A DNA stretch of 57,312 nt from a virus (lineage: Duplodnaviria; Caudoviricetes), in IMG/VR virus record IMGVR_UViG_3300022725_000257, positions 1 to 57,312 of that record; one strand, 5' to 3'. Below are positions 1 through 57,312 of the stretch, one piece after another. The position numbers and the translations under genes were made by a program. How positions within the stretch are numbered: the stretch's first letter is position 1; each line of letters begins with the position of its first letter. Under the pieces are notes generated by a model, which searched no databases, was not told the DNA's origin, and saw only the letters and a program-made list of their open reading frames with translations.

Positions 1-122
1 ATAACGTGGTAGCGTATAACGGGCGCAGAGATTATGAGTGAATTAAAGACTGAAAATATCGAACTAACTGAAACCGAAAACAACGGCAAGTCTGCGTCCG
101 CAGTTGATACGCATTGTTATAG
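1..122. other. attC-like hairpin H (also at 57184..57307)
   Basis: TAAC-gtggta-GCGTAT-AAC-GGGCGCAGA ... TCTGCGTCC-gca-GTT-G-ATACGC-att-GTTATA; ATG at 34 lies in the loop. Confidence 0.85.
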
Positions 123-127
123 CAACG
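1..127. repeat. Terminal direct repeat, copy 1 (identical to 57186..57312); indicates a circular contig
   Basis: 127 nt identical at both ends; length equals a common assembler k-mer, so likely an assembly overlap. Confidence 0.95.
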
Positions 128-576
128 GGGTGCAAAAGGAGCTTATTGAGTTGTGCCACGATGATTTGCTTGAACCGGCAGTTAAACTTCTGAAGCGAAG
201 TGGAAAAATGTGGAAGTGTAGCAATGTGTTTTGCGATTTGGCGACCGCTGCCAGTGAGCAACCTGACGCATTTGGAATTGGCAGCGGGTTCACTTCTTTA
301 GTGGAAGTCAAAGTAACACGATCAGATTTTCATGCTGGCAAAAAAAAGTTTTTCCGCCAACATCCTGAATGGGGGATGGGAAATTACAGATTTTACCTTT
401 GCCCAGAAGGGTTGATAAAGCCGGATGAAATTCCTGAAAATTGGGGATTGGCGTATTGGACTGAAAAAAAAGCAAATGTAATTGTGAAACCCGACTGGCA
501 GGAAAGCCACCAAAAACGAGAAATAGCTTTTGTGAACAGCGTACTCAGACGTATTAATGCTGACGAGTTGCTATAA
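34..576 (+). CDS. PD-(D/E)XK nuclease-like protein (MmcB-like); cassette gene
   Basis: Motif EQPDAFG...LVEVKVTRSDF...GNYRFYLCP. Confidence 0.65.
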   Translation: MSELKTENIELTETENNGKSASAVDTHCYSNGVQKELIELCHDDLLEPAVKLLKRSGKMWKCSNVFCDLATAASEQPDAFGIGSGFTSLVEVKVTRSDFHAGKKKFFRQHPEWGMGNYRFYLCPEGLIKPDEIPENWGLAYWTEKKANVIVKPDWQESHQKREIAFVNSVLRRINADELL

Positions 577-692
577 CGGATCGGCGTTTAAGCGGCGCTG
601 AAATTAAATAACAACTAAAAATCAGAAATAGAATTATGAGTCAGATTACAGAAAAGGACGCGGCAGCGTCCGCCTTGAAACGCTTGTTAACC
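571..692. other. attC-like hairpin I
   Basis: TAAC-ggatcg-GCGTTT-AAGCGG-CGCTG ... CAGCG-T-CCGC-c-TT-G-AAACGC-tt-GTTA; ATG at 636 in the loop. Confidence 0.85.
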
Positions 693-902
693 GCCCGGTG
701 GTATTTACTGGAACATCCGTGGTGCCACAGTAGTCAAGCTGGAACAGCAATATTGGCGGGAAATCCTGACCCACACCTGGGCACTTTTGTTGCAGATACG
801 GAAATGATGATGGATGATTGTGATTTTGAAGATGAAAATCAGCCGAGATCTATTGCTCAGCATATTGTTGACCTACATAATGCAAGCATAGAGGGCGGTT
901 AA
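636..902 (+). CDS. Hypothetical protein; cassette gene
   Basis: 88-aa ORF; stop is the TAA of the closing TAAC. Confidence 0.75.
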   Translation: MSQITEKDAAASALKRLLTARWYLLEHPWCHSSQAGTAILAGNPDPHLGTFVADTEMMMDDCDFEDENQPRSIAQHIVDLHNASIEGG

Positions 903-942
903 CATAGTATTGAGCAAAATTGAAATCCTAATATAAAGGGAA

Positions 943-1452
943 ATGGTTATGAAAAAAGAAATATTACAACGGGTCAAAACGCAGCTCAAAAATAATTGGT
1001 ATGTAGATCAGGACGACATACAAGCCCTTATTGATATTGCTGAACAGGCTGATATCGAAAAGATAAGAGATATCGTAGATGATGAATTGTGGGACGTTTT
1101 TTCAAGCTCACAACTTAACAGGCTTCACAGAGCGTTCGACAGCGCAAAAAAACAATTAGTAAAAGATAAAAAACCGCAGCACACCCCGCACAAAGTGTAT
1201 CAAAGCTTATTTGATTTCTTTCATATAGAGCACAGGCTGGTCTTAACGGAGGGTGAAATGGATGATATTGTGTATGTCGTCAAAGAATTCATAGACCATT
1301 CACATCAAAGATATATCGAGGATACGGCAGAATTTACGGTAAGGATAAAATCACCCGCAGCCGAGGAGACCTATGTGTATCCACTTGATGATTTTAACCG
1401 GTTCAGAAGACTATACAAAAAATTTGTTCGGAAAAAATTAAATAGAAAGTAA
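943..1452 (+). CDS. Hypothetical protein
   Basis: 169-aa ORF, co-directional, tightly packed. Confidence 0.75.
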   Translation: MVMKKEILQRVKTQLKNNWYVDQDDIQALIDIAEQADIEKIRDIVDDELWDVFSSSQLNRLHRAFDSAKKQLVKDKKPQHTPHKVYQSLFDFFHIEHRLVLTEGEMDDIVYVVKEFIDHSHQRYIEDTAEFTVRIKSPAAEETYVYPLDDFNRFRRLYKKFVRKKLNRK

Positions 1453-1455
1453 AAA

Positions 1456-1761
1456 ATGAAAGCACCTGATAAAATATACCTACAAATTGACGAAATAGAA
1501 CACAAAGACTCAACTTTTGAAGCAGTTACTTGGTGCAAAGATAGAATCAACGATTCAGATGTTGAATACATAAGGGTTGATAATGTTCTCAAAAGCCTAA
1601 ATGATGAACTTAAAAAAATGCCTGATGAAGAACTTTTAAATTTTGTAGATGAGATAGAAAAATGGTGTTATTTAGGCATAAATGATGAGCCTCATATAAG
1701 TCTTAATGGCATTATTAGGGCAATAGAAATTCTTGAACAAAAACGCAAAGAAAACTTGTAA
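1456..1761 (+). CDS. Hypothetical phage protein
   Basis: 101-aa ORF, N-term MKAPDKIYLQ...TWCKDRINDSDVEYIR resembles small phage proteins. Confidence 0.75.
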   Translation: MKAPDKIYLQIDEIEHKDSTFEAVTWCKDRINDSDVEYIRVDNVLKSLNDELKKMPDEELLNFVDEIEKWCYLGINDEPHISLNGIIRAIEILEQKRKENL

Positions 1762-1940
1762 TGAAAGAACTTGTATTTGTAACCCTTGATTGGGCAGCGA
1801 ACCCTATAACTACGATTGATGGACAGATTTTGCCCCGAAAAGCAGAGATGTTGCTCAACGGGGACTATTACCCAAACAACCGTGTTGGCGAGTGGCCAAG
1901 GAACCCTAAAACAGGCAAAAAACTTCCTATATATGAGTAA
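1761..1940 (+). CDS. Small hypothetical protein (59 aa, missing from the ORF track)
   Basis: TAATG overlap with upstream stop; MKELVFVTLDW...GEWPRNPKTGKKLPIYE. Confidence 0.65.
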   Translation: MKELVFVTLDWAANPITTIDGQILPRKAEMLLNGDYYPNNRVGEWPRNPKTGKKLPIYE

Positions 1941-2286
1941 TAAAAATAATCCGTATTCCGGTATGAACCCTCTTGATAAATTTCCGCACCCCTTTGATCC
2001 TAAGTACGAGGAAAAAATGAAAAAGTTAAAAAGAAATGACCCCGACAAATTTGTTAATTGGCCGCTGGTAAATGGCAATTATAGTACAAAAAATGGAAGC
2101 AGAGTTACAATATTTGGCAAACGCAATGGATGTAGCCAAGTAGACTTCGATTGGTTTGAAGAAGGTGGGTGTGTTGACTGCATCCCGCAGCCATACCCGG
2201 AAAAGTATGATAATAATGATGTGCGGCTTGTTTGGCACTGTGATGTTTGCGGTGGTGGATCTGCAAAACTATACAAAGATAAATGA
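1933..2286 (+). CDS. Hypothetical protein with two CxxC motifs
   Basis: Start moved to ATG 1933 because 1761..1940 occupies the upstream part; CVDC and CDVC. Confidence 0.65.
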   Translation: MSNKNNPYSGMNPLDKFPHPFDPKYEEKMKKLKRNDPDKFVNWPLVNGNYSTKNGSRVTIFGKRNGCSQVDFDWFEEGGCVDCIPQPYPEKYDNNDVRLVWHCDVCGGGSAKLYKDK

Positions 2287-2307
2287 TATGAATTGAGCAA
2301 TGAGGCA

Positions 2308-2437
2308 GGGTAACGTTGCTGCAATTAAGCGGCGGCGTTAATCAGGCCCGTTGGACTATGGAAACCGTTAATCTAATATTTTAATTGAGACTGTAATAAG
2401 GACGGCCTTGCCGTCCGACTTAAATTGCTTGTTATAT
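2308..2437. other. attC-like hairpin J
   Basis: TAAC-gttgct-GCAATT-AAG-CGG-CGGC ... GCCG-T-CCG-A-CTT-A-AATTGC-tt-GTTA; first 26 nt identical to site C (55385). Confidence 0.85.
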
Positions 2438-2774
2438 GCCGATTGACTATAGCGAATACCCGGAAAATTGGAAAGAGATAAGCGAGTACATTCGTTTTGA
2501 GCGTGCTGGTAACCGATGCGAAAGTTGCGGAGCTGAAAATGGAAAGCCGCACCCTGTTACTGGTAGTAAGGTTGTTTTGACAGTAGCACATATTCGACAT
2601 GAAAAATCGGATGTGAGGTATAACCCTGATGCATATGATCCTGACGATGAGGAAAATAATTTAGTGGCAGAATGCCAAAGATGTCATCTTACAAGGGATG
2701 CAAAGTTGCACGCTCGAAACCGTAAATACGGTCGAAAGCATAACCGTAAAGAACAACTGCGCTTAGGCATATAA
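2436..2774 (+). CDS. HNH-like endonuclease; cassette gene
   Basis: YPENW...RAGNRCESC...LTVAH...NLVAECQRCH. Confidence 0.75.
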   Translation: MPIDYSEYPENWKEISEYIRFERAGNRCESCGAENGKPHPVTGSKVVLTVAHIRHEKSDVRYNPDAYDPDDEENNLVAECQRCHLTRDAKLHARNRKYGRKHNRKEQLRLGI

Positions 2775-2889
2775 CGTGGGAGGCGTAAGCGGTCAGGCAG
2801 AATTATGAATAACGAAAAAGCAAATACTATGAATAAGCAAGAAACTGTAACCGGACAAGAAGCCTGTCCGCTTGACGCCTTTGTTATAG
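2769..2889. other. attC-like hairpin K
   Basis: TAAC-gtggg-AGGCGT-AAGCGG-t-CAGGC ... GCCTG-T-CCGCTT-G-ACGCCT-tt-GTTA; ATG at 2805 in the loop. Confidence 0.85.
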
Positions 2890-3524
2890 CGCAAAGGGAG
2901 GCGCTCGAAGCATTGCGGGAAATGCCCGATGATTGCTGTGATATTTTTACAGACCCGCCGTACAATGTTGGAAAAGATTATGGTGTTTGGGACGATTCAA
3001 TGCCCGATCAAGAATATGAACGGTGGATAAGTGATGTTCTGACTGAATGCAAAAGGGTTGCCGTTAATATGGTTGTTTACGTTCCTAAAAAATGGAATTT
3101 ACTTTACTGGAATGTTCTTGGTGATTCATTTCAGGAAATAATACTCCCATTTAGACCGGCCGGTGCAATACGGTATGGGTATTCAAATCAGTTCAATAAG
3201 CTACTTACAAATGCGAGACCGAAAAGGGAAAAGCCGGTACTCAACGTTTGGGATAATATGCAACAGCCGGGGCTTGGATTCTTTTTTAGAGAGGATACAT
3301 TAGGCAACCCCGGCTACACATCTGAGGCAATTACACGAAGGGCATTGGAACAGCTTTTGAGCCATGAATTTATTTATGACCCGTTTATGGGTGTTGGAAC
3401 TACTGCCGTTGCCGCTGAGAAAGCCGGAAAGAAATGGGCAGGAACTGAGCTTAATCCTGAATTTATTGAAAAAGCATGGACACGAATACATGAATACAGG
3501 AACCAACTTGAACTTGCGCTATAA
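2805..3524 (+). CDS. N6-adenine/N4-cytosine DNA methyltransferase (beta order); cassette gene
   Basis: FTDPPY (motif IV) precedes DPFMGVGTT (motif I). Confidence 0.9.
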   Translation: MNNEKANTMNKQETVTGQEACPLDAFVIAQREALEALREMPDDCCDIFTDPPYNVGKDYGVWDDSMPDQEYERWISDVLTECKRVAVNMVVYVPKKWNLLYWNVLGDSFQEIILPFRPAGAIRYGYSNQFNKLLTNARPKREKPVLNVWDNMQQPGLGFFFREDTLGNPGYTSEAITRRALEQLLSHEFIYDPFMGVGTTAVAAEKAGKKWAGTELNPEFIEKAWTRIHEYRNQLELAL

Positions 3525-3643
3525 CGGTTTAGCGTTTGTGCGGCGCTTTAATAAAGTTAATTAGAATAACAAAATTTATAATCCAATGATTAAGCAAAAA
3601 ATAGAACAAGAAAAAGCGTCCGATACGAAACGCATTGTTATGC
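3519..3643. other. attC-like hairpin L
   Basis: TAAC-ggttta-GCGTTT-GTG-CGG-CGCTTT ... AAAGCG-T-CCG-a-TAC-G-AAACGC-att-GTTA; ATG at 3586 in the loop. Confidence 0.85.
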
Positions 3644-3843
3644 AACCGATTACAGTATGGGAAAAGTTTAGTAAAAAGAAACAAAAGTATGAGCATAACC
3701 ATATTGAAGATGGACACCTTACCGGAGATACACCCATTGCAAGAACTGAGGAGCAGAAAAAAGAATGGGATAATACATATTGGCGAAAAAAGTTTGGTTA
3801 CCTGAAGGATGGAAAAGTAGTTGAAACTGAAATAGCTTATTAG
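3586..3843 (+). CDS. Hypothetical protein; cassette gene
   Basis: 85-aa ORF between GTTATGCAACC and GGTTGCATAAC, starting in the hairpin loop. Confidence 0.7.
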   Translation: MIKQKIEQEKASDTKRIVMQPITVWEKFSKKKQKYEHNHIEDGHLTGDTPIARTEEQKKEWDNTYWRKKFGYLKDGKVVETEIAY

Positions 3844-3846
3844 GTT

Positions 3847-3932
3847 GCATAACAAAAGTTTCTGTTGCAAGCCGGACAAGGTGTGGACAACCTTCATGCG
3901 TTTAGCTTGTCAGCAGGAAACTAAGGTTAGAA
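3847..3932. other. attC-like hairpin M
   Basis: TAAC-aaa-AGTTT-CTGTTG-CAAGC ... GCTTG-T-CAGCAG-G-AAACT-aag-GTTAG; extra T and G on the right arm. Confidence 0.75.
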
Positions 3933-3940
3933 AAATTAAC

Positions 3941-4420
3941 ATGAAAATAATATTTTTAGATATTGATGGTGTATTAAATTCTAACGCTTGGTTTAAAAGT
4001 GAAGAATATAATATAAAAGCAAAAAATATGTCTTTTCCTGATACACATCTGGATAAAAAATGTATTTTTAATTTAAATTATTTGTGCAATTTATCTGGTG
4101 CGGATATCGTGATTAGTTCTACTTGGCGTGAATTTGATTATTGTGCCTCAGCTCTGAGGAGAAATGGTGTTACTGGTAATATAATAGGCACTACACCATG
4201 TTTAAGAAAAAAGCTTGAAAACGGTTTATATATAGGCAAAACCCGAGGGGAAGAAATTCAGGCTTGGTTAGATAATAACGGTTACGAATTCTATGTAATA
4301 ATAGATGACTGTTCTGATATGCTTAGATCACAAAAAAAATATTTCGTCCAGATAAATGGAACAGTAGGTTTAACTAAAAATAATGTTTTACAAGCTCTTA
4401 AAATTTTAAATATTGAATAA
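3941..4420 (+). CDS. HAD-superfamily phosphatase (Swiss-Army-knife RNA-repair HAD type)
   Basis: MKIIFLDIDGVL, IVISSTWR, RGEEI, YVIIDD; ATG 3941 preferred. Confidence 0.85.
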   Translation: MKIIFLDIDGVLNSNAWFKSEEYNIKAKNMSFPDTHLDKKCIFNLNYLCNLSGADIVISSTWREFDYCASALRRNGVTGNIIGTTPCLRKKLENGLYIGKTRGEEIQAWLDNNGYEFYVIIDDCSDMLRSQKKYFVQINGTVGLTKNNVLQALKILNIE

Positions 4421-4425
4421 TTGAT

Positions 4426-4569
4426 ATGCTATATTTTTTTGTAGGTTTTTTGGTGGGTTTTATAACATCCATGTTAGGGCCTAAATTTATTAGATTTTTA
4501 ATATATAAATCACCCAATGACTTGTTAGTTAGTAAAGCTATTAAAAGAGTTGTTGAACACCAAAATTAA
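4426..4569 (+). CDS. Small membrane peptide (47 aa, missing from the ORF track)
   Basis: MLYFFVGFLVGFITSMLGPKF..., starts 5 nt after the upstream stop. Confidence 0.5.
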   Translation: MLYFFVGFLVGFITSMLGPKFIRFLIYKSPNDLLVSKAIKRVVEHQN

Positions 4570-4581
4570 AGATCTTATAAG

Positions 4582-4674
4582 CAGTTGCATCGGGGCATCG
4601 AGGAAGCGGGTCCCATCGGTGGCATACAGCGTCTTACGAGGCGGGACTAGGTGTGCTAAACCCTGATGTGATTG
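4582..4674 (+). ncRNA. Candidate structured RNA / long hairpin between convergent genes
   Basis: CAGTTGCATCGGGG pairs with CCCTGATGTGATTG using 4 G-U pairs; inner GGTCCC/GGGACT stem; GC-rich in an AT-rich context. Confidence 0.4.
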
Positions 4675-4678
4675 ATTA

Positions 4679-5338
4679 TTAATTTAAGTTTCTCTTTGAT
4701 CTGTTTCTTAATATATCATTAATTTCATCAGCAGTATAAACACTATTTCCTAATGTGTGTATTTTTTCTGTTACATTAGTGGCTTCATTTTTACCAATAA
4801 TTCCTTTACGCACAGCATCACTTATTTGATCTGTTATGTGTTTTGCCCACTTCTCTAATCTGTTTGATGACATTTTCCCATATACAATCATACTTTCCCG
4901 GGCTTCATCACTGTTATGCGGTGTTCCTTCCATATATAATCGTAATGCATAAGCTGAAACTATCAACCAGGATTCATTCATTCTTTCATACCGGTTGCCA
5001 TTAATTGGTTCAAAGGAATCACATGCGCTTGCAAGTGCATCCGCTAAATGCTCAATGAGCATAGCATTTGTTGGGGCAATCTTTTTTACATACACTAAAT
5101 ACTTTATCTGATTAAGCATCAGATCATAAAGAACCTCTTGATCTTCTTCAGGGATCTCAATTTTTCCTTGATCATCTACATCATGATGCTCTGTATAAAC
5201 AGGCTTACCAACACGTTTATAAAAATCGAGTGATTTTTGCTTTGATATCTTTTCATTATAAAAGCTCAAAGCAAGCGATGTTGAAGCAATTGTTATAACC
5301 AATAGTAGGATACATAAAATTAATATAGGTGTAGTCAT
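4679..5338 (-). CDS. Hypothetical protein with N-terminal membrane anchor
   Basis: 219 aa; hydrophobic N-terminus. Confidence 0.75.
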   Translation of the reverse strand: MTTPILILCILLLVITIASTSLALSFYNEKISKQKSLDFYKRVGKPVYTEHHDVDDQGKIEIPEEDQEVLYDLMLNQIKYLVYVKKIAPTNAMLIEHLADALASACDSFEPINGNRYERMNESWLIVSAYALRLYMEGTPHNSDEARESMIVYGKMSSNRLEKWAKHITDQISDAVRKGIIGKNEATNVTEKIHTLGNSVYTADEINDILRNRSKRNLN

Positions 5339-6794: not shown

Positions 6795-7793
6795 CTATGT
6801 TCTAAAACTTGGTAAAAATAATTCTTTCCCTTCTACAACTTTCGATTCTCTCCAAATATGTTCTTCGGGATCTAATCCTCTCTCTTTACAAACTTCTTTA
6901 TATTTATCTTGCCTCAACCAGCCTGCTTTTAAATAATCAGAAACTGTATTCATTTTATTCTGAGTTTCATTAAAGGCATACCACCGGTCAACCCATTTAT
7001 CTATAGCCTCCATTTTTTTTCGGCCGTAATAGGTATTCCAATCCCTGCGATGGGCTTCTTTTATCATATTGCTTCTTGCTCGGACTTCTAATCCGCCAAG
7101 TAACTCCCTGCCTGTATAAACATTTAATGCTCTTTTAATGTCTTTCTTTTTTTTAGGTGTTAACCTGGTATTTGCATCACTTAGTTTGTTAAAAGAATCA
7201 ACAAAGCTTTTATAATCAATCTTCCCGCCAGAATATTTTTCTTCAGATGATGCAACATAAGGTTCAATATCAGTGTTGCCAATGCCCTCATTATCTTCAT
7301 GATTGTCAACATTGACATCCTTATTGTTAACATTTTTACTTTGTTTGTTAACAATAGTTACATCAAAACTTACAGAGCCAAGCTCTTTTTCCACATAATT
7401 ATCAACATCAATAAGTAAATATCTGTGATCGAGTGTTATAGATTTTCTGCGCTTGCAGGCCGCGATGAAGCTCTTTTGTATATCTTTGCTTGTTAATATG
7501 CCATAAGTTTTAAACATCTTTTTATCAAATACATTAGCATAAAGCGCGTGCTCAATAAGATTGTTGATAACTTCCTTACTCACCGGATACTCCGGCCGGT
7601 TGTATTCAGCTATATATAGCATAATAAAGTCATCATCAACAGCAAGGTAATAGCCTTCCTCAAAAAACATTTTTTCGAGAATTGTCCAGTAAAAACCAGC
7701 CCCAGGCAAACCCGTTAAAGAACTATAAATTTTTAACGGTTTAGTTTGCATTGCGGTAGATGAGTGAATAAAAAAATCAAGACCTTTATTCAT
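6795..7793 (-). CDS. Phage replication initiator (DUF4373/Lin1244-like N-terminus)
   Basis: GLDFF...GAGFYWTILEKMFFEEGYY...GILTSKDIQ; directly upstream of dnaB; internal iteron-like repeats. Confidence 0.75.
   Translation of the reverse strand: MNKGLDFFIHSSTAMQTKPLKIYSSLTGLPGAGFYWTILEKMFFEEGYYLAVDDDFIMLYIAEYNRPEYPVSKEVINNLIEHALYANVFDKKMFKTYGILTSKDIQKSFIAACKRRKSITLDHRYLLIDVDNYVEKELGSVSFDVTIVNKQSKNVNNKDVNVDNHEDNEGIGNTDIEPYVASSEEKYSGGKIDYKSFVDSFNKLSDANTRLTPKKKKDIKRALNVYTGRELLGGLEVRARSNMIKEAHRRDWNTYYGRKKMEAIDKWVDRWYAFNETQNKMNTVSDYLKAGWLRQDKYKEVCKERGLDPEEHIWRESKVVEGKELFLPSFRT
7304..7353. repeat. Iteron-like triplet TGT(T/C)AACA with 21-bp period inside the initiator gene
   Basis: TGTCAACA 7304, TGTTAACA 7325, TGTTAACA 7346. 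Confidence 0.7.
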
Positions 7794-14995: not shown

Positions 14996-15223
14996 TTAAT
15001 GGTATCGCTTAATGGTTGGAATTAACTTAAAGTTATTTTCTTCGGCATATTTTTTTGCAAAGCGTAACGCCTCACTTTCCGAAAAAAACGAATTTATATT
15101 TGAGTGATATTCTGCCTTAGAAGCATCATCGTGAGTAACTTTATCTACAAAATACATTCGCCTGGATGTGGTCTTTGTCTGTGGTATTGAATGTGATTCT
15201 ATCTCTACTGTTATATTAGCCAT
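14996..15223 (-). CDS. Hypothetical early protein
   Basis: ATG supplied by the repeated module. Confidence 0.7.
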   Translation of the reverse strand: MANITVEIESHSIPQTKTTSRRMYFVDKVTHDDASKAEYHSNINSFFSESEALRFAKKYAEENNFKLIPTIKRYH

Positions 15224-15363
15224 AGCATTTGCTGTTTGGTTGTTGGGCGCGGTTTGAAATGTGAGCTATTAATTTGCACAATAATTCGTTCAATGTCAAG
15301 TGCTTTTTTTATAATAAAAACAGACAGTTATGTATTACATAACTGTCTATCCGTATTATGTTT
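15221..15363 (-). repeat. ~140-bp terminator+promoter+leader module, copy 1
   Basis: Near-identical to 18127..18264 and 19881..20023; hairpin, TTGACA-17-CAAATT, leader ending at ATG. Confidence 0.9.
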
Positions 15364-15568
15364 CTTCTATGGAGATTGTCCCAATACGATTACCATTAAT
15401 GTCCCGGATTAACTTTTCATGATTCATTGCGTGTGGCAAGTCCTCCAATAAATCATATGTTAAGCGGGCGCATTGAAACACTTGCCTATATACGGCGGCA
15501 GGTAATAAATTCTGCTCTGTATCATAGAATGCTTCGTTAGTTATATCAAACTCTATTTTTATCTTCAT
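15356..15568 (-). CDS. Hypothetical early protein
   Basis: Start at MKIKIEFD. Confidence 0.65.
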   Translation of the reverse strand: MKIKIEFDITNEAFYDTEQNLLPAAVYRQVFQCARLTYDLLEDLPHAMNHEKLIRDINGNRIGTISIEET

Positions 15569-17220: not shown

Positions 17221-18129
17221 TTATGCGGTTTCAAGTGCATGTTCTGCATGGGTGTAGTATTGGGCTAAGAATTCGGTTGCTTTCTCTGCCCGGCTTGCGG
17301 CCCCTATAATGTAATATTCGCCTTTGTCCTGTTTAAGCGCTTTGATCCACCCTTGGATATAAGCTGTTGAATTTTCCATTATAGCTCCACGTATTCCAAA
17401 TTCTTGGCATAGAAATGATGCTCCAATTTCGGCGGTCAATTCCTCTTTGGAATATTCTTTCATATCAGATTTCCCCCTCAACTCTCTATCCAGCCGGGAT
17501 TTGTGGCCGGTTGAGTGTATAATCTCATGGAAATATGTTTTATAGTAATATTCCGGATTTTTAAAATCCGAAAGTTGTGGCATAACAATGCGATCTAAAG
17601 CGGGGTTATACATAGCCCTTGGCCCAACGCCCTTTGTGATTTGCTGTGCTGCCATATAATGATTGATAAAGCGCTCTGCTGAACTTATAGTCGAATGGTT
17701 AACAGCCGGAAGTTCCGGTAATTTTTTATCCTCTATGCCCTCGCATTGCTCATAGTTGAACACATTGTAGTACCGCAATACATACCTTTCATCGAATTCA
17801 CTGTTATGTAAACCCAGGGTTTCTTCTTGATCAACCTGTTTCCCATCTATATAATACATAGGCATCCAAAACACGACCGGCGTGGATTTTTCTCCTTCAA
17901 TCACAGATCCTCCAAGCTTTTTTGCCTGTTTATATGTCAACTAAAATGGTGAGGCGTATTTATAACTCAAGGATAAGATTAATCTATTAACACCCGAATA
18001 GGGTCTGCCTGTAATGGCGTTTCGGGGTGTGTGCCCTTCAGTAGACCACGGTTTTTCCCACGGTATAATGTTTTGTTCGAGAGCTTCTATGAAGCGGTCG
18101 GTTATTAACTTATATACTTTATTTTTCAT
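17221..18129 (-). pseudogene. ardC: ArdC-like antirestriction/ssDNA-binding zincin, interrupted by an in-frame TAG at 17943-17941
   Basis: IIPWEKPW...PRNAITGRPYSGVN (ArdC N-domain), SPF*LTYKQA, then YNVFN, FHEIIHSTGH, YSKEELTAEIGA. Confidence 0.85.
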
Positions 18130-18264
18130 AGCATTTGCTGTTTGGTTGTTGAGTGCGGTTTGAAATTTGAGCTATTAATTTGCACAATAATTTGTTCAAT
18201 GTCAAGTGCTTTTTTTTATAATAAAAACAGGTAGTTATCATGATAACTACCTTTCTGTATTATG
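18127..18264 (-). repeat. Terminator+promoter+leader module, copy 2
   Basis: Same module; hairpin changed but still paired (AGGTAGTTATCA/TGATAACTACCT). Confidence 0.9.
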
Positions 18265-18459
18265 GCTTGTTGGCTCTTGGTATCCTACCCAATCAAATGC
18301 CCATTCTTTCAAAAGTTCGGGTGATTCGGTCGGGTGTCTGTGCATGAGAATTGCAAATAATGCGTGTGCATCCTGTTCGTTATCATGCCCGGTTTCCCAT
18401 GGTCGAAAGTTTTCTTTTAAATCATCAGTAAAATGATTTTCTGAAAATTTCATGTTCAT
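18247..18459 (-). CDS. Hypothetical early protein
   Basis: 70 aa. Confidence 0.65.
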   Translation of the reverse strand: MNMKFSENHFTDDLKENFRPWETGHDNEQDAHALFAILMHRHPTESPELLKEWAFDWVGYQEPTSHNTER

Positions 18460-19688: not shown

Positions 19689-19883
19689 TTATACTAAAAA
19701 GTCTTCAAGGTAATCCGGCTCAAGGCCAAATTGCTCATAGCAATAATCAAAGGGTAATTCCCCTGATTCAATACGGCTAATTAATTCTTGCCTGTGTTGC
19801 TTGAAGCGTTCTTCCGCCTGATCTTGGGTAAGCCCTTCACGTTGGCGTATAATATCTTTTATGTGTTGTCTGTGTGTATCCAT
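19689..19883 (-). CDS. Hypothetical early protein
   Basis: 64 aa, ATG from the repeated module; FGLEPDY tail. Confidence 0.7.
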   Translation of the reverse strand: MDTHRQHIKDIIRQREGLTQDQAEERFKQHRQELISRIESGELPFDYCYEQFGLEPDYLEDFLV

Positions 19884-20023
19884 AGCATTTGCTGTTTGGT
19901 TGTTGAGTGCGGTTTGAAATTTGAGCTATTAATTTGCACAATAATTTGTTCAATGTCAAGTGCTTTTTTTATAATAAAAACAGACAGTTATGTATTACAT
20001 AACTGTCTATCCGTATTATGTTT
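19881..20023 (-). repeat. Terminator+promoter+leader module, copy 3
   Basis: Near-identical to copy 1. Confidence 0.9.
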
Positions 20024-20461
20024 TTACTGCCTCGTTGCCTGTGCTGCAAGCTTCGCAACACGTGATGCGTAATGCTCAATAGCCTGCATTTTGCGTTGTG
20101 CGGCGTTGCGCTTTAGTTCACTCTTAGTAACACTTGATATAGCATTAATCCAGTCTGAAATATCTGTTATTTCAGAAGATAAGCCATGAGGATATGTGTT
20201 CTTTAACTCTTTGTCTATACCCTCAATCGCAATATATGCGTTATCCGTTTCGCCTACGTCTATGTACTCGTTGTCGGTAGGCGCAATGTTCGGTAAGAAA
20301 TAATCTTCAGCAATAAATTGCTGTTCTATGCCTATTTTTTCGTTAATTACTCTTAATACTTCATCAGTATTAAGAGCGTTTTTATTTTCAAAATATACGC
20401 AGTCATTGTGTGCGTGGCCTTGTGCGTCTCTGTACGTTATTGTGAGTATTATCCAGCTCAT
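20024..20461 (-). CDS. Hypothetical early protein
   Basis: 145 aa. Confidence 0.7.
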   Translation of the reverse strand: MSWIILTITYRDAQGHAHNDCVYFENKNALNTDEVLRVINEKIGIEQQFIAEDYFLPNIAPTDNEYIDVGETDNAYIAIEGIDKELKNTYPHGLSSEITDISDWINAISSVTKSELKRNAAQRKMQAIEHYASRVAKLAAQATRQ

Positions 20462-20518: not shown

Positions 20519-20785
20519 TTAATGTTGTGCCATTTCTTGGTTGTATTCATCAACAAGTTGATGGAATATTTTTCTATTTCCATCGGTCATTTCGCAATAC
20601 ATACGCACCATAGCGTGGAATGTGCGCCACGGCATGCCCTTGTAGTCCAATGCGTATCCACGATATTTGCGGTAAAAATGTTGGCCCAAGCGCTTACCGT
20701 ATAACTCGATTAGCCGATCACGTATATCGTGCGGAAAGTTGTAGCAGAAATGAAAAAATTCTGTTGTTATTTCATGTTTTTCCAT
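20519..20785 (-). CDS. Hypothetical early protein
   Basis: 88 aa, ATG inside the 61-bp repeat. Confidence 0.7.
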   Translation of the reverse strand: MEKHEITTEFFHFCYNFPHDIRDRLIELYGKRLGQHFYRKYRGYALDYKGMPWRTFHAMVRMYCEMTDGNRKIFHQLVDEYNQEMAQH

Positions 20786-20843
20786 GATTAAACCTTTGGT
20801 TTAAAAGTTAGTTTTAAAAAGGGAATGGATTTTTCCATTCCCT
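20783..20843 (-). repeat. 61-bp hairpin+leader repeat, identical at 21166..21226
   Basis: CATGATTAAACC...AGGGAATGGA-tttt-TCCATTCCCT in both copies. Confidence 0.9.
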
Positions 20844-20853
20844 TTGTTAGGCG

Positions 20854-21168
20854 TTATGCTACCTGCTTGAGCTTATTTAACAATCTGTATTTCTCACTGT
20901 TCAGTGAGCTTTTTTGTTGTTTAAGCTTGTTCAGATCTTTCTCGATCTTATCGAGTTGCTTCTGTATTTGTTCTTGGTTTAGCTCTTTAGAGCTTTTTTG
21001 GTTTTTCACTGTTGCCTTTCGTTTTTTAGAAGTCGTAGACTTCTTTTTGGTTTTGGTTGTTTTTTTGGTGGGTTTCGCCGGCTTGGGTGATGCGGGCCGT
21101 GGTTGTACGCCTGATGTATCGCTTGGTGCATATACAGGTACATAGTCGATGGTTGATAGAACTTTCAT
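20854..21168 (-). CDS. Lys-rich basic protein with coiled-coil-like tail
   Basis: KPAKPTKKTTKTKKKSTT... Confidence 0.65.
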   Translation of the reverse strand: MKVLSTIDYVPVYAPSDTSGVQPRPASPKPAKPTKKTTKTKKKSTTSKKRKATVKNQKSSKELNQEQIQKQLDKIEKDLNKLKQQKSSLNSEKYRLLNKLKQVA

Positions 21169-21236
21169 GATTAAACCTTTGGTTTAAAAGTTAGTTTTAA
21201 AAAGGGAATGGATTTTTCCATTCCCTATGTTGGGTG

Positions 21237-21451
21237 TTAGATGGTTTCAAAGAAACCATCCGTGAGCGTTGCATGTGATTCCTGCTCGATTTCGGCAAGC
21301 ATCTGTTCGTGGCTCAACTTGCCTGCGTAATAATCTTTGATTATTTGGTCAACACTGGAAGCTGAAAGCTCCGGAAATTCGGATTGAATTTGCTCGTGTA
21401 GGTCGTGATTTGCGGGTTGTGTAGGTCGTGATTTGCGGGTTGTGTATACAT
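21237..21451 (-). pseudogene. First early gene, frameshifted by a 23-bp tandem duplication
   Basis: Leader-matched ATG at 21451 reads a 63-aa protein only if one 23-bp unit is removed. Confidence 0.6.
21396..21446. repeat. Tandem repeat, 2.2 x 23 bp
   Basis: GTGTAGGTCGTGATTTGCGGGTT twice plus GTGTA. Confidence 0.95.
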
Positions 21452-23142: not shown

Positions 23143-23784
23143 ATGAATAAAGCATGCCGGCCATTTGAAAAGGAAGAGATAGCATTAATGTTTGAAGGTT
23201 TTAAAACCGAAGAATACGGAAATCGGGACAGAGCAATATTTGCAGTTGGAATATCAACCGGTTTTAGAATAAATGAGATTTTGTCTCTAAGGGTCAAAGA
23301 CGTATATAATGAAATTGGAGATCCATACGATAAAATAAAAGTCCAGAAGCGTAACATGAAAGGCGGGAAGTCTCGGCCACCTAAAAAAATATTCCCGGAA
23401 ACAAAGCTATATTTATCACATTGGTATGATGAACTTATGCGCCGATGGACAGTACACAGATCATCTAAATGCTTCATGTCTGAAAAAGGGGGTGCTATAT
23501 CAGCAGAAACCTTTAGGGTTTGTATTAACAGGGTATGTAAAAAGGTTGGCATAGAGACCAAAGAAATTGGCACCCATTCGATGCGTAAAACTTTTGCCAA
23601 TGCTGTATATGATTATTGGGTAAAACAAGCTAAAGAGGGAAGGCGCATAGAGCCAATGCGGATGGTGCAAATTGAGCTTGCACATTCAAACATAGATGAC
23701 ACCTACCGGTATTTGAATTTTAAGCTCGAAGAAAAGGGAGATGATGTTTTTCATGAATATAATATGCTCGCAGGCCTATACTAA
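23143..23784 (+). CDS. Tyrosine recombinase, catalytic domain only
   Basis: RDRA...TGFRINEIL, MKGGK, THSMRKTF, LAHS, TYRYL. Confidence 0.92.
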   Translation: MNKACRPFEKEEIALMFEGFKTEEYGNRDRAIFAVGISTGFRINEILSLRVKDVYNEIGDPYDKIKVQKRNMKGGKSRPPKKIFPETKLYLSHWYDELMRRWTVHRSSKCFMSEKGGAISAETFRVCINRVCKKVGIETKEIGTHSMRKTFANAVYDYWVKQAKEGRRIEPMRMVQIELAHSNIDDTYRYLNFKLEEKGDDVFHEYNMLAGLY

Positions 23785-54341: not shown

Positions 54342-54396
54342 AACACCCTAAAACTGCTTGTAGTGTTTTGAAATACACTACAGGCTTACCGCATTA

Positions 54397-54457
54397 AGCA
54401 GCCATTTTTACCAGGCCCGGTATCCAGCCTGCTGTATAAAAGTGGTTGCTTTTTTTA
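54397..54457 (+). terminator. Terminator closing the late arm
   Basis: AAGCAGCCATTTT...AAAAGTGGTTGCTT followed by a T-run. Confidence 0.65.
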
Positions 54458-54489
54458 TGTCGAATATTTACAATTTTTTACAACAGCCA

Positions 54490-54518
54490 TTGATTTATTT
54501 TTTTATTTTTGGTAAAAA
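54490..54518 (+). promoter_or_regulatory. Candidate promoter reading into cassette array I
   Basis: TTGATT-17-TAAAAA with extended -10 TG. Confidence 0.4.
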
Positions 54519-54550
54519 ACCACCTCCCGATTGGTACAACCGATTGAACC

Positions 54551-54589
54551 GAGACGGCTCTGTCGTCTGACTTAAATTGCTTGTTATGC
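54551..54589. other. attC-like half-site A (right arm only)
   Basis: GTCGTCTGACTTAAATTGCTTGTTAT matches the right arms of sites C and J; no left arm upstream. Confidence 0.75.
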
Positions 54590-54765
54590 TTACAGAAATC
54601 GACAAACTATTTGGATGCGAAGAAGAATACGATAATGTTTTTGAGGCTGAGATAGATCAGGAGCTGCAAGAGGCGTTTGAAGACATGTGGTGCACCTGTG
54701 GAGCCTATGTAATTCGAAATGGAAAGATAAAAAAAGAAGCAGACTGTTTATGTGGCTATGGATAG
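54586..54765 (+). CDS. Small acidic Cys-containing protein; cassette gene
   Basis: ATG within GTTATG; CTCG...DCLCG. Confidence 0.65.
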   Translation: MLTEIDKLFGCEEEYDNVFEAEIDQELQEAFEDMWCTCGAYVIRNGKIKKEADCLCGYG

Positions 54766-54768
54766 TAA

Positions 54769-54863
54769 GCATAAGGTATTTGCAAATAAGCTGCCCGCGA
54801 AAGTCGTAGGTTGCACAAAATAATAATAACTACAAGCAGGTCAGGTTGATACGATTGTTATGC
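54769..54863. other. attC-like hairpin B (decayed: TAAG instead of TAAC)
   Basis: Homologous to site E (TGCAAATAAGCTGCC...CAAGCAGGTCAG), outer stem mismatched. Confidence 0.7.
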
Positions 54864-55387
54864 CTCCCAATTACAAAGATGTATTTTTTATAATTGATTA
54901 CGAAACAACAGGTGTTGGAAAAAATGATGTACCAATAGAGGTTGGTATTATTGTAACAGACTCTGAATGGACTGAACTTGACAGAATGGAGTCTTTAATC
55001 TATTCGGATTATTCAATTCAATTGCCCCCGGACTACTGGGATAAGGCAAAAGAATTTCACGGTATTGATCAGGAAACAATTAAGCATAAGGGAATATTTG
55101 CAAGCCGTGTAGCAAAGAAAATACATGATTTAGCAAAGAAGTGGAATCCAGTTTGTGGTCGTGTAATTCTTCTTTCTGACAATATTCAGTTTGAATGGAA
55201 ACACACACAATGGCTTTTTAACTACATTGATTTAGACGTGACAGACATATTCCATTACTGTGGGTGGGATACTTCATTACTATCATTGTTTACTTCATTC
55301 AAAGACCCATCTGGTACAGATCACAGGGCGCTATCAGATGTTGAGGGACTTTTGAATGAATTAAGGAGAGTAGCTAAGGAGGGATAA
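54860..55387 (+). CDS. DEDDh 3'-5' exonuclease; cassette gene
   Basis: IDYETTG...IEVG...HGI...DT...HRALSD. Confidence 0.85.
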   Translation: MPPNYKDVFFIIDYETTGVGKNDVPIEVGIIVTDSEWTELDRMESLIYSDYSIQLPPDYWDKAKEFHGIDQETIKHKGIFASRVAKKIHDLAKKWNPVCGRVILLSDNIQFEWKHTQWLFNYIDLDVTDIFHYCGWDTSLLSLFTSFKDPSGTDHRALSDVEGLLNELRRVAKEG

Positions 55388-55474
55388 CGTTGCTGCAATT
55401 AAGCGGCGGCACTAACTGAACAGAAATCGAAACTAAGGGCGGCTTTGCCGCCTGACTTAAATTGCTTGTTATAT
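55382..55474. other. attC-like hairpin C
   Basis: Same arms as site J with a shorter loop. Confidence 0.85.
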
Positions 55475-55476
55475 AT

Positions 55477-55671
55477 ATGACGACAAAGGAATTTTTACTT
55501 GAAAAAGAACTGAACTGGACTCGAATAGAGGAAATGCAGGAAGAATTGAAACGGAATCAAAAAACGATTGATGATCTTATAAAGCGTAATGATGATCTAT
55601 ATGCAAAAATGCAGATAATAGCCCAAGACATGCAGAAAAAAGCTGAGGAGCTTGATAAGGTATATGTATAA
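55477..55671 (+). CDS. Small coiled-coil protein; cassette gene
   Basis: ATG just after GTTATATAT; stop is the TAA of TAAC. Confidence 0.7.
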   Translation: MTTKEFLLEKELNWTRIEEMQEELKRNQKTIDDLIKRNDDLYAKMQIIAQDMQKKAEELDKVYV

Positions 55672-55843
55672 CGGGGAGCTTCAACCAATAAAGAATTAAA
55701 AATGAGCAAAAAACTTAGAGAACAATTTGTGAAAGAAACCGGCAAATCTCCTGCTGATTGGGAGATGGACAGCCCTGTATTTCACCCAAAATATGTTGAA
55801 TGGTTAGAAGCAAAAGCCGGTCAGCACGAACCGATTGTTATGC
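55666..55843. other. attC-like site D (right arm intact, left arm not complementary)
   Basis: GCCGG-T-CAGCAC-G-AACCG-att-GTTAT right arm lies inside CDS 55702..56004. Confidence 0.6.
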
Positions 55844-56004
55844 CACAAAATGAAAGTGAGAAACAGGCCTTTTTTATTGTTACTGTTATGAGAAATATGA
55901 ATAAAGATGAGGTTGAAATGCTTTGCGAAAATCTGCTTGCGAGATATGATATTAATTTACCACGATTGATACAGTGTGTAGAGCAAATTAAGGATGTGCT
56001 ATAA
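55702..56004 (+). CDS. Hypothetical two-part protein spanning an attC-like arm; cassette gene
   Basis: N-part ...YVEWLE, linker AGQHEPIVMP encoded by the arm. Confidence 0.7.
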   Translation: MSKKLREQFVKETGKSPADWEMDSPVFHPKYVEWLEAKAGQHEPIVMPQNESEKQAFFIVTVMRNMNKDEVEMLCENLLARYDINLPRLIQCVEQIKDVL

Positions 56005-56094
56005 CGAAATTGCAAATAAGCTGCCTGCGAAAATCGCAACAGCTTCATATTAAACACTAACTGCAAGCAGGTCAGCTTGATTTGCTTGTTATAC
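55999..56094. other. attC-like hairpin E (most canonical)
   Basis: TATAAC-gaaatt-GCAAAT-AAGCTG-CCTGC ... GCAGG-T-CAGCTT-G-ATTTGC-tt-GTTATA. Confidence 0.9.
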
Positions 56095-56107
56095 TGCGAG
56101 GTAGATT

Positions 56108-56437
56108 ATGGGACTTGATTTTGGACATACCTGCCCTGATATAGACAGGGGAATCGAAGCATTTAAGGATGATTTAAAAATGTTTTTGAGCGAAGTAATA
56201 GATGATGTTTGTCCTTTACTCGAAGGTGAAGTGAAAGATGATCTTGTGAAAAGTTACGCTGATGATATTTATAACGAGTTTGGGGGTAATTTTGAGAATG
56301 TCAGAAAAACCAATGAAGAAATGCGAAGTGAAGCGGACAGGCAAATTGGTGAATTACAGGATGAGGTTGGTGAATTACGATCAGAAATAGAAGACCTTAG
56401 ATACCAACTGGAAAATGAAAGGGCATTAGCAGTGTAA
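56108..56437 (+). CDS. Coiled-coil hypothetical protein; cassette gene
   Basis: HTCPDID...ENVRKTNEEMR; stop is the TAA of TAAC. Confidence 0.75.
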   Translation: MGLDFGHTCPDIDRGIEAFKDDLKMFLSEVIDDVCPLLEGEVKDDLVKSYADDIYNEFGGNFENVRKTNEEMRSEADRQIGELQDEVGELRSEIEDLRYQLENERALAV

Positions 56438-56552
56438 CGTGTGAGGCGTAAGCGGCAAGCAGATTAGAAATTTATGGAAGCTAAAAAACTAAATAAGATG
56501 AATGAAACGAAAACAAAGGCTGAAGCTTGTCCGCTTGATGCGCTTGTTATAC
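56432..56552. other. attC-like hairpin F
   Basis: TAAC-gtgtga-GGCGT-AAGCGG-CAAGC ... GCTTG-T-CCGCTT-G-ATGC..tt-GTTA; same family as K; ATG 56474 in the loop. Confidence 0.85.
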
Positions 56553-56827
56553 AACCGGAGATGATTATGAGTAATGGACAAGATAAAGGTAATAACACAT
56601 ATACAGATTACAGTTTTCAAGGTCAATCACCGTTTGCAGAGAATGCGGTATCATTGCTTTTGGCTGACAATTCAAGTGTAAAATATAAAGGCGAAGAATT
56701 TGAGGCAATACAGTTTCATTATGAGTGTCAAGAAACAGAGCAGTGTTTTACTACAGATGAAATTGATGAAATTAACATTAGAATAGTACTCGCTTCTTAT
56801 AGAAATAGAATGCTTTTAAAGCAATGA
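56474..56827 (+). CDS. Hypothetical protein resembling the N-terminal zinc-ribbon of MqsA/YgiT-type antitoxins; cassette gene
   Basis: SPF...YKGEEF....HYECQETEQCFTTDEIDEIN....YR. Confidence 0.5.
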   Translation: MEAKKLNKMNETKTKAEACPLDALVIQPEMIMSNGQDKGNNTYTDYSFQGQSPFAENAVSLLLADNSSVKYKGEEFEAIQFHYECQETEQCFTTDEIDEINIRIVLASYRNRMLLKQ

Positions 56828-56831
56828 GGTT

Positions 56832-56961
56832 GTATAACGGATGGAGCATAACCGGCAGGCATTACAGGCAATGAATTTGAAACAACTAATAACTGAACTA
56901 TAAATCAGCAATAGCTGATGCCGGACAGCTTGCCTGTCCGCTGTTGATGCTATTGTTATAA
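56832..56961. other. attC-like hairpin G
   Basis: TAAC-ggatgg-AGCAT-AAC-CGG-CAGGCA ... TGCCTG-T-CCG-ct-GTT-G-ATGCT-att-GTTA. Confidence 0.85.
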
Positions 56962-56978
56962 ACACACGGAGCGGTAAA

Positions 56979-57173
56979 ATGAGCACAGATGTAGAAAAAT
57001 TAGATTGGGAAAAGGCAAGAGATTATTTGTCTCGATGTGAAGAGGCATATACCGCTATTGGTAGTGCTGGATCATTTGCAATGAATTTTGTGATAACGCC
57101 TTTGCGCGATAGGCTTAATTCAGGTGAAAGAACTGAACAGCTATACAATGAGATTATGGAGATTGCAATATAG
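56979..57173 (+). CDS. Small hypothetical phage protein; cassette gene
   Basis: 64 aa ending SGERTEQLYNEIMEI; bounded by a 13-bp perfect inverted repeat. Confidence 0.75.
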   Translation: MSTDVEKLDWEKARDYLSRCEEAYTAIGSAGSFAMNFVITPLRDRLNSGERTEQLYNEIMEIAI

Positions 57174-57185
57174 CGGAGTGTGTTT

Positions 57186-57312
57186 ATAACGTGGTAGCGT
57201 ATAACGGGCGCAGAGATTATGAGTGAATTAAAGACTGAAAATATCGAACTAACTGAAACCGAAAACAACGGCAAGTCTGCGTCCGCAGTTGATACGCATT
57301 GTTATAGCAACG
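57186..57312. repeat. Terminal direct repeat, copy 2
   Basis: Identical to 1..127. Confidence 0.95.

Follow-up and report, generated by a model that had tools for sequence, protein, structure and literature searches.

Genome Organization and Cassette Arrays

The window analyzed in this study, i.e., the whole stretch of 57,312 nucleotides (nt) of the IMG/VR record IMGVR_UViG_3300022725_000257, is a complete phage genome of 57,185 base pairs (bp) whose ends overlap by 127 bp (positions 1–127 = 57186–57312), and it is classed in IMG/VR among the genomes with direct terminal repeats. It encodes a terminase, DnaB, an Erf-like annealing protein, a C5 methylase and large structural proteins. From about position 54378 to position 4466, across the ends, small open reading frames (ORFs) on the + strand alternate with long imperfect hairpins, 13 in total (H0–H12), which are limited by (A)TAAC at their start and GTTA(T) at their end. 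It is highly probable that this region (54378..57185/1..4466), which makes up about 12% of the complete phage genome, consists of two adjacent integron cassette arrays of about nine and four cassettes, that is, a cluster of attC sites lacking an integron integrase (CALIN), in a phage that carries no integron integrase of its own. The identity of the sites, their strand, the boundaries of the units and the turnover of units between relatives are demonstrated by the data given below.

The features of both arrays are all on the + strand. The scores quoted for the hairpins are those of R1, a covariance model for which 20 attC bottom strands served as input, 11 of them bacterial and 9 viral and all taken from genomes other than the window and its relatives; the whole 57-kb window was scanned with it on both strands, with the filters off. 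The fraction quoted for each ORF is the number of complementary positions between the bases after GTT at the start of the unit and those before AAC at its end, referred to here as the private repeat. The distal end of array 1 is the attC-like H0 (54378..54587), which was missed by R1 and recognized by repeat family D9, its sequence and its fold; it has a long AT-rich loop, a decayed 5′ arm (TTAC for TAAC) and a 3′ arm nearly identical to those of H2 and H9. It is followed by an ORF of 59 amino acids (aa) at 54586..54765, with a weak match to phrog_16785, an ATG that overlaps the GTTATG box and the private repeat TTATGCTTAC (10/10). H1 (54769..54863) is a weak model match (10.9 bits, E 3.1) whose arms resemble those of H4 (repeat families D5 and D17), and the next cassette ORF (54860..55387; repeat 10/11) encodes a DEDDh exonuclease of the RNase T type (PF00929, 7e-12; phrog_192), starting at GTT-ATG and stopping at the TAA within ATAAC. 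H2 (55382..55474; 24.5 bits, E 0.0012) precedes an ORF of 64 aa with no family (55477..55671; 10/11). H3 (55668..55841), recognized by its fold and missed by R1, is a degenerate attC in which the 5′ arm is decayed while the 3′ arm and the GTTAT box are retained; its loop encodes the N-terminal 46 residues of the 100-aa cassette ORF that starts there (55702..56004; 8/10).

The remainder of array 1 contains better-scoring sites. H4 (55999..56094; 31.7 bits, E 1.8e-5) is followed by an ORF of 109 aa (56108..56437; phrog_32976; 9/10) with its own GAGG-type ribosome site 3′ of the box, and H5 (56432..56552; 34.9 bits, E 2.7e-6) by an ORF of 117 aa (56474..56827; 11/11), whose longest frame begins in the H5 loop and which has an internal GGAG and ATG after the box. 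H6 (56832..56961; 24.9 bits) is 80% identical by blastn over 141 nt to an attC of the viral contig L057, described below, and precedes an ORF of 64 aa with its own GGAG site (56979..57173; 13/13). H7 (57184..57307; 21.0 bits, E 0.009) is the same DNA as positions 1–120 by virtue of the end overlap. The 180-aa ORF that opens in its loop (34..576; phrog_631; 11/11) stops at the TAA within ATAAC. H8 (571..692; 26.1 bits), with arms near the chromosomal attC type of Balneolaceae, carries in its loop the start of an ORF of 88 aa (636..902; 11/11). The array ends proximally at 897..903 with a TTAAC box that has no hairpin after it and no R1 match. With regard to the genome ends, the 127-bp terminal repeat starts at the first base of the ATAAC box of H7. 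The genome may be circular or permuted, in which case the repeat would stem from an overlap during assembly and would not be a physical repeat of the termini; 127 is a common word length of assemblers.

The two arrays are separated by a non-cassette module of four ORFs without Pfam families (904..2309, + strand), the first two of which follow H12 instead in the related contig L002. Array 2 begins distally with H9 (2308..2437; 29.0 bits, E 8.6e-5), followed by an HNH endonuclease ORF (2436..2774; phrog_1571, 2e-21; 10/10), H10 (2769..2889; 30.4 bits, E 3.9e-5) and an N6/N4 DNA methyltransferase ORF that opens in the H10 loop (2805..3524; PF01555; phrog_67; 12/12). H11 (3519..3643), a weak model match (10.8 bits, E 3.2) supported by its fold, precedes an ORF of 85 aa (3586..3843; 11/11). 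H12 (3849..3935) is an attC-like hairpin (ATAAC ... GTTAG) identified by its fold and by comparison with L002, and missed by R1. The probable last cassette ORF (3941..4420; end box at 4460–4466; 8/9) encodes a protein with a HAD_SAK_2 domain (phrog_1818). At the proximal end of array 2 (4460–4479), TAAC and GTTA boxes lie 6 nt apart with a weak model match of 9.5 bits, and this could be a minimal or remnant recombination site. Between the end of the array and the gene at 4679–5338 there is a G+C-rich non-coding stretch (4560–4680), conserved in L002 and without an Rfam match, which may be a structured RNA.

Identification of the Hairpins as attC Sites

The inter-ORF hairpins are genuine integron attC sites. 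Their structure comprises an R box (TAAC/GTTA), an unpaired spacer, an L box (AAGCGG/CCGCTTGA) whose 3′ arm has one G in excess, and a loop that varies from about 20 to 170 nt. The extra base of the 3′ arm is seen in CCGCTT-G-A (A in H2 and H9), together with a T bulge or a T-T mismatch. Both the folds and the model alignments showed what is expected of an attC: the L″/L′ pairing is imperfect, one of the arms has extrahelical bases and the terminal loop is variable. Inverted core sites (TAAC ... GTTA) bound 12 of the 13 hairpins. The exceptions in the boxes are the 5′ side of H0 (TTAC) and the 5′ box of H1, which reads ATAAG (TAAG). At least three sequence types can be distinguished among the attC sites of the window.

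A search motif derived from the 3′ arms (GTCCGC, TTGA and TTGTTA with short gaps) matched more than 114 viral contigs and more than 120 genome contigs, and many of the matches had a matching TAAC arm 50–100 nt upstream. Among the matches listed, tandem arrays were present in the genomes of Balneola (7 and 5), Gracilimonas, Silanimonas, Rhodanobacter and others. An exact search with an 18-base arm of type B was also made, and its two matches, both without hairpins, were rejected as chance. With R1, eight of the 13 hairpins (H2, H4, H5, H6, H7, H8, H9, and H10) scored 21–35 bits with E<0.01; every match at E<0.1 was a hairpin on the + strand, and none was found elsewhere in the 57 kb on either strand. 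None of 50,697 phage records matched the array by blastn.

Base pairing was examined in an alignment of 13 model matches, consisting of 12 phage attCs (from the window, L057, and L002) and one off-array match (17580–17611). Paired cells amounted to 92.4%, compared with 77.5% after shuffling (0 of 500 shuffles reached the observed value) and 31–43% when the partner was slid, and compensatory changes were observed in eight pairs. It must be noted that this alignment leans towards structure because it was fitted to the model. The three outermost pairs of the R box fail in 4–6 of the 13 matches; in the array, these positions are the flanks of two different cassettes.

A preliminary description of this DNA, made from the sequence alone, had proposed that the hairpins are DNA recombination sites rather than terminators. 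The attC model matches, the compensatory pairing, the integron integrase (IntI) that neighbors the array of L057 and the lack of T-runs on the + strand all bear this out. It is extremely unlikely that the hairpins act instead in RNA, as terminators, processing sites or translational elements, with the complementarity of start and end closing each mRNA. The hairpins are transcribed with the genes, several contain start codons, and stop codons lie within the TAAC box, as such a role would have it. However, in a scan of 53800–57312 the + strand hairpins lacked terminator T-runs and a single terminator-like site was found on that strand (five on both strands, compared with 2.1 expected from shuffles), no hairpin matched Rfam at the gathering thresholds, and the same structures flank cassettes beside IntI in L057 and in bacteria, in the latter on the non-coding strand. 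A tRNA scan found none, and sigma-70-like promoters in 53800–57312 were below the shuffle expectation (7 vs. 11.3). As recombination sites, the hairpins could still have an additional role in RNA.

Private Inverted Repeats of the Cassettes

A private repeat is a textbook signature of an integron cassette. In the window, 12 unit starts were anchored at GTTA and 12 unit ends at TAAC, and all 144 combinations were compared in register. The complementarity between the flanks of the same unit, on which the preliminary description was based, was present in all 12 of its pairs with the scores it had reported. Seven pairs are perfect over 10–13 bases (116/577, 686/903, 2431/2775, 2883/3525, 3637/3853, 56546/56838, and 56955/57190). 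The pair 54584/54765 matches in 10 of 10 positions, its end being ATAAG instead of ATAAC, and the remaining four have one or two mismatches. In addition, the HAD gene is bordered by a 13th pair, absent from that description (GTTAG at 3926, TAAC at 4463–4466; 8/9).

Beyond the shared GTTAT core, i.e., at positions 6–13, the mean match was 6.0 of 8 for cognate pairs and 2.48 of 8 for the 132 non-cognate pairs, while the two flanks of each hairpin as it now stands matched in only 2.67 of 8 positions, in agreement with what had been described. In a permutation test, the cognate sum of 72 was reached by none of 100,000 permutations (mean 33.4, maximum 59); the longest non-cognate run, counted from GTT, was 9. 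The own-unit complementarity is therefore real and far beyond chance. As each unit has a terminal repeat of its own, a reading as transposons with terminal inverted repeats or miniature inverted-repeat transposable elements was ruled out.

Two ends that complete one R box were found in the window, in L002 (11/11 and 20/21) and in Balneolaceae. In the Balneolaceae chromosomal arrays the private repeats are 7–12 bp long, with a mean own-pair run of 9.2 against 4.9 for foreign pairs (19 cassettes, of which two with low values were mis-paired when the simple search skipped a site). The mostly perfect matches in the phage had been taken to suggest recent mobility, and this did not hold: perfect repeats do not date movement, because the Balneolaceae arrays have private repeats of the same kind and because the cassette takes the two halves of its repeat along when it moves. 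Selection for an R box that can fold is a simpler explanation for them.

Strand, Crossover and Cassette Boundaries

In integrons, it is the bottom strand of attC that folds; it has the extrahelical bases on its 3′ arm and is cleaved at AA|C in its 5′ box. In the window, the folds and the R1 alignments place the extra G on the 3′ arm of the + strand. In Balneola (L241 and L242) and in the phage contig L057, the strand matched by R1 is the coding strand of intI and lies upstream of this gene, which is the classical geometry for the bottom strand. Given the extra G of the 3′ arm and this placement in Balneola and L057, the + strand of the window is the bottom strand of attC. Hence, the crossover falls at AA|C in the box with which the ORF before the hairpin ends, and the mobile unit is a hairpin together with the ORF downstream of it. 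In this regard, the integron logic of the units proposed in the preliminary description stands, since the private repeat is predicted equally by either boundary, while the hairpin has to be assigned to the ORF that follows it and not to the one before.

Both arrays of the window begin with a hairpin (H0 and H9) and end at a TAAC without a hairpin (903 and 4466). Furthermore, a DUF551-like cassette (the name was given by eye) is common to L057 and the metagenome contig L239, and the shared DNA runs from AAC through the attC and the ORF to the next TAAC, with unrelated DNA in front of it and unrelated attCs behind it in the two contigs. The cassette boundaries in this comparison thus fall at AAC. 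The frames that open in the attC loops and continue into the ORF downstream, described below, support the same assignment. A cassette is accordingly composed of the C, the attC, the downstream ORF and the final ...TAA. Once a cassette is excised as a circle, the terminal bases of its ORF unit would pair with those that directly follow GTTA, and this pairing would extend the R box to 10–13 bp, giving rise to the private inverted repeat.

Turnover of Cassettes Between Relatives

A DnaB search gave one relative, L002, a contig that ends inside the array. It is 84–90% identical to the window at the nucleotide level over the replication genes, and its DnaB is 96% identical. H12 is kept in L002 (85%) and the DNA on both of its sides differs: before H12 there is a cassette for a methyltransferase of the NPPF type with a private repeat of 20/21, and after H12 the ORF943/ORF1456 module, which in the window follows the end of array 1. 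The content of close relatives thus differs exactly at R boxes, which supports the view, already put forward in the preliminary description, that the units are integron cassettes.

In a tblastx comparison of the array with all fetched loci, L002 and L049 matched the ORF943/1456 module and its flank (940–1761, 3849–3935, and 4464–4681), and no cassette was shared except for a distant methyltransferase match in L201. Protein searches with the gene to the left of the array, and with the gene to its right in metagenomes, retrieved no relatives. Contigs from four runs of one study (X1–X4) were also compared with 52000–57312. X1 and X2 may be the runs from which the window derives. In the contigs of X3 and X4 the array was present only in pieces, and 18 of the 24 loose contig ends listed lay within 25 nt of an R box; a clustering of breakpoints at attC boxes is expected because attCs are repeats. 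Five contig joints, all with sides of 40 letters or less, were uninterpretable. Neither an excision circle nor a clean cassette deletion was seen in the contigs of the four runs.

Recombinases and Source of Integrase

The best six-frame score of the window against the integron integrase model TIGR02249 was 14.6 bits, far from the cut-off of 265. An intI gene with an adjacent attI, as in a complete integron, is not found, and the array ends at 903 and 4466 have no recognizable attI. Instead, two or more close attC sites are present with no intI nearby, and all spacings are below 1.7 kb; the spacing rule of IntegronFinder for a CALIN is <4 kb. As the window has no IntI, the region is a CALIN of about 13 cassettes. 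For the same reason, any mobility would need an enzyme supplied in trans or a candidate phage recombinase.

The sole tyrosine recombinase of the genome is a 213-aa protein (23143..23784, + strand; PF00589, 59 bits; phrog_216) of the Xer/phage-integrase type that consists of the catalytic domain only. It is very unlikely that this enzyme recombines the hairpins. There is no other tyrosine recombinase in the genome to do so, the catalytic R..HxxR..Y pattern can be recognized by eye, and GTTAAC-containing repeats of 21 bp lie just downstream (23833–24065). On the other hand, it lacks an N-terminal domain and is not an integron integrase, with 28 bits against TIGR02249 by hmmscan of the protein and 14.6 bits in the six-frame scan of the genome; in integrons, the IntI-specific segment reads the extrahelical bases. 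Moreover, the related array of L057 has a real IntI instead, and the sites are ordinary attC sites common to bacteria.

L057, a viral contig identical to the metagenome locus L240, contains the same hairpin type as the window and no protein-coding similarity shared with it at a tblastx E of 1e-8. At the end of its array, a TAAC box lies 55 nt before an integron integrase gene (341.8 bits with TIGR02249) whose product is 49% identical to a Balneola IntI, and phage structural-type genes follow. IntI above the cut-off was also found in two of the three Balneolaceae genomes tested. The cassettes of the window would be recombined in trans by the integron integrase of the host, probably a member of Balneolaceae, or of a co-infecting phage that carries intI.

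Two further observations concern the surroundings of the recombinase gene. An ORF of 216 aa with no known function (22489–23139) precedes it in the same frame, at a distance of a single TAG and one codon, and the two are probably separate genes. The repeats at 21-bp spacing (23833–24065), which contain TGTTAACA, immediately follow the recombinase gene and precede that of the terminase, and they recur at 7283–7354 inside a gene with a Lin1244_N domain; they may be iterons or recombinase, pac or origin sites.

Coding Loops and Cassette Cargo

Eight of the 13 cassette ORFs stop at the TAA within the TAAC box. An ATG in or directly after GTTAT provides three certain starts (54586, 54860, and 2436) and is available in frame as an optional start for two more ORFs (3639 and 55840). 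Among the loops that contain an ATG, seven of eight hold a frame that is open through the 3′ arm into the downstream ORF (6/7 in the window, where H6 is the exception, and 1/1 in L002; binomial against one-third, 0.0026). In the ORF at 636–902, the first in-frame ATG past the box is codon 57 of 88. The leaders encoded by the loops of H3 and of an attC of L057 show weak protein similarity (14 of 34 residues identical, pairwise E 2e-4), and in the cassette shared by L057 and L239 the leaders differ between conserved arms. Expression of the cassettes would depend on read-through transcription of the phage, with translation starts in or just after the attC.

In the array of L239, which directly follows a terminase large-subunit gene, an attC at approximately 1575–828 (− strand) has its cognate arms about 690 nt apart, and a complete DNA methyltransferase ORF with a DPPY motif was read by eye in the loop.

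The cargo of the window is of phage type: an HNH endonuclease, an N6/N4 methyltransferase, a DEDDh exonuclease, a HAD_SAK_2 protein and members of PHROG families 631, 32976, 1818, and 16785; eight of the 13 cassette proteins match PHROG families. The arms of H8 and H11 resemble the attC type of Balneolaceae, and this likeness of sequence suggests that the host belongs to this group.

Orientation of the Cassette ORFs

In the classical layout, the ORF lies opposite the bottom strand of attC and the attC comes after the ORF; this is not the layout of the window. We located sites by motif and arm score, and for each interval between neighboring sites we recorded on which strand its longest ORF lies. 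In bacterial loci, one ORF was on the same strand as the attC bottom strand, 39 on the opposite strand and 4 unclear, whereas the corresponding figures were 4, 0, and 2 for the window, 3, 0, and 1 for L057, and 7, 0, and 6 for other IMG/VR loci. A second tally was based on R1 matches in 98 IMG/VR loci, where the other viral loci gave 20 same, 6 opposite and 27 unclear calls. By array, 12 were mostly same, 4 mostly opposite and 14 tied or uncalled. Under a stricter open-frame rule the calls were 11 same, 1 opposite and 42 unclear. Individual phages illustrate both layouts. Tetrasphaera phage TJE1 has three model matches on the − strand and annotated genes on the + strand, which is the classical layout (our crude ORF caller was wrong for one of its two intervals), and Polaribacter phage P12002L has a single match (30005–30059, − strand) between two methyltransferase genes of the − strand, i.e., a same-strand layout. 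The inversion of the cassette ORFs is therefore a bias common to most, but not all, of the viral arrays sampled. It should be considered a lead and not a settled rule, since the loci were chosen by the motif of the window, the called cassettes number 26 for viruses and 40 for bacteria, and IMG/VR contigs can include host DNA.

This orientation bears on whether the array is a fossil passenger, taken over as one block from a chromosomal integron of the host through illegitimate recombination and now inert, with repeats that are relics of past events in the bacterium. A genome without IntI, three decayed hairpins and the Balneolaceae-type arms of H8 and H11 are what such a capture would leave. 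Nevertheless, we regard it as improbable: the ORFs are on the strand opposite to that of the bacterial arrays, eight of the 13 cassette proteins match phage families of PHROG, the cassette content differs from that of a relative 84–90% identical in the replication genes, and seven of the 12 repeats are perfect.

Several points weigh against the interpretation of the region as a pair of phage-borne cassette arrays. The window has no IntI, attI or Pc. The R box, GTTATNN, departs from the textbook GTTRRRY at the fifth base, and this reading of the box is shared by the Balneolaceae sites that adjoin IntI. Three hairpins (H0, H3, and H12) were missed by R1 and two (H1 and H11) reached only about 11 bits, and the sites used to build R1 had been picked by a motif derived from this window. 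To the right of H12, the difference between the window and L002 starts just after GTTAGAAA, which a crossover at AA|C does not explain; homologous exchange that used the hairpin and the stretch from about 4468 on, both of which are conserved, or a rare top-strand recombination, would explain it. The breakpoints of the contigs, mostly at attC boxes, are individually uninterpretable, and one joint would fit a G|TT crossover. Finally, a relative of the terminase (41% identity) was found in one of the 151 Balneolaceae genomes searched, which is too weak to name the host.

Other Repeats and Regions of the Genome

Outside the arrays, a very G+C-rich non-coding stretch of about 250 nt with C- and G-runs (22140–22400) lies upstream of the ORF at 22489–23139, in a genome of about 37–40% G+C. 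The early region of the − strand contains intergenic repeat units of 152 nt (15217–15368, 18123–18274, and 19877–20028; 69–95% identity) and of 77 nt (20780–20856 and 21163–21239; 95% identity, with a perfect small hairpin), and both resemble promoter or terminator modules present in several copies. The ORF of 1259 aa at 26332–30111 contains a 188-nt repeat in three copies (27043–28031; 73–89% identity), which are probably repeated domains of a structural protein.

Relation to Known Systems and Significance

Among the known systems closest to the window are the chromosomal integrons of Balneolaceae (L139, L148, L203, and L190). They share with it the TAAC/GTTA R box, the AAGCGG/CCGCTTGA L box, the extra G, the variable loop and a private extension of the R box of 7–12 bp in each cassette, and with the phage contig L057 the placement of the modeled strand relative to intI. 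They differ in that their ORFs are on the other strand (39 of the 40 called cassettes of the bacterial loci) and that the attCs within an array hardly vary and measure about 90 nt, whereas the window has its ORFs on the attC bottom strand, at least three attC types, loops of up to about 170 nt and no intI. Reverse-oriented cassettes, such as toxin-antitoxin cassettes with their own promoters, are present in sedentary chromosomal integrons as scattered exceptions in classical arrays. As in the window, the ORF is then antisense to the usual direction and must bring its own expression signals, but in the window the whole array is inverted. Small accessory genes flanked by repeated stem-loops, the PeSL "mobile regulatory cassettes," were reportedly described in T4-type phages by Arbiol et al. 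in 2010, with movement via circles being proposed. These are units of a promoter and a stem-loop without a link to integron integrases, in contrast to the window, whose sites match attC models and which has no excess of sigma-70-like promoters.

Phage CALINs are already known. According to the passages of Qi et al. (2023; Front Microbiol, PMC9892861) considered here, phage genomes contain 3 complete integrons, one In0 element and 17 CALINs, methyltransferases are recurrent cargo of phage integrons, and IntI1 recombines five of six phage attCs, the bottom strands better. As in the window, the CALINs described in those passages are attC clusters without intI and have DNA methyltransferase cargo, but they are small: a minimum of two sites defines a CALIN there, and a figure legend gives three attC sites for TJE1, compared with the 10 model-supported sites and 13 cassettes of the window. 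The main-text passages concerned (PMC9892861) mention no whole inverted array, no attC loops that carry starts or genes, no array of this size and no discussion of the ORFs with respect to the bottom strand. The window is thus a large member of a recently described class, and the inverted, partly coding layout appears to be common, though not universal, among viral arrays.

We tentatively propose, as a possibility somewhat short of an even chance, that many phages keep a mirror-image pool of cassettes in which each ORF is carried by the bottom strand of attC and comes after the attC of its own cassette. The attC loops would supply the starts, in some cases also an N-terminal peptide that can be exchanged and, in L239, a complete methyltransferase gene; expression would be by read-through, so that a cassette would be silent if captured by a bacterial integron and vice versa, and the IntI of the host or of a phage would shuffle the cassettes during infection. 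The coding strand of the attC sites in the window is predicted to be the recombinogenic strand. If such a pool exists, phages would have a dedicated way to swap anti-restriction and other accessory genes. Integrons have been seen as bacterial devices, with phage attC clusters first reported only in 2023, as small clusters, and L057 is a second, unrelated phage contig that has the same kind of array and its own integron integrase. If the orientation bias is true, phages and bacteria would share the recombination machinery while drawing on largely separate and mutually silent gene pools, which would bear on the spread of anti-defence genes among phages and on the origin of integron cassettes.

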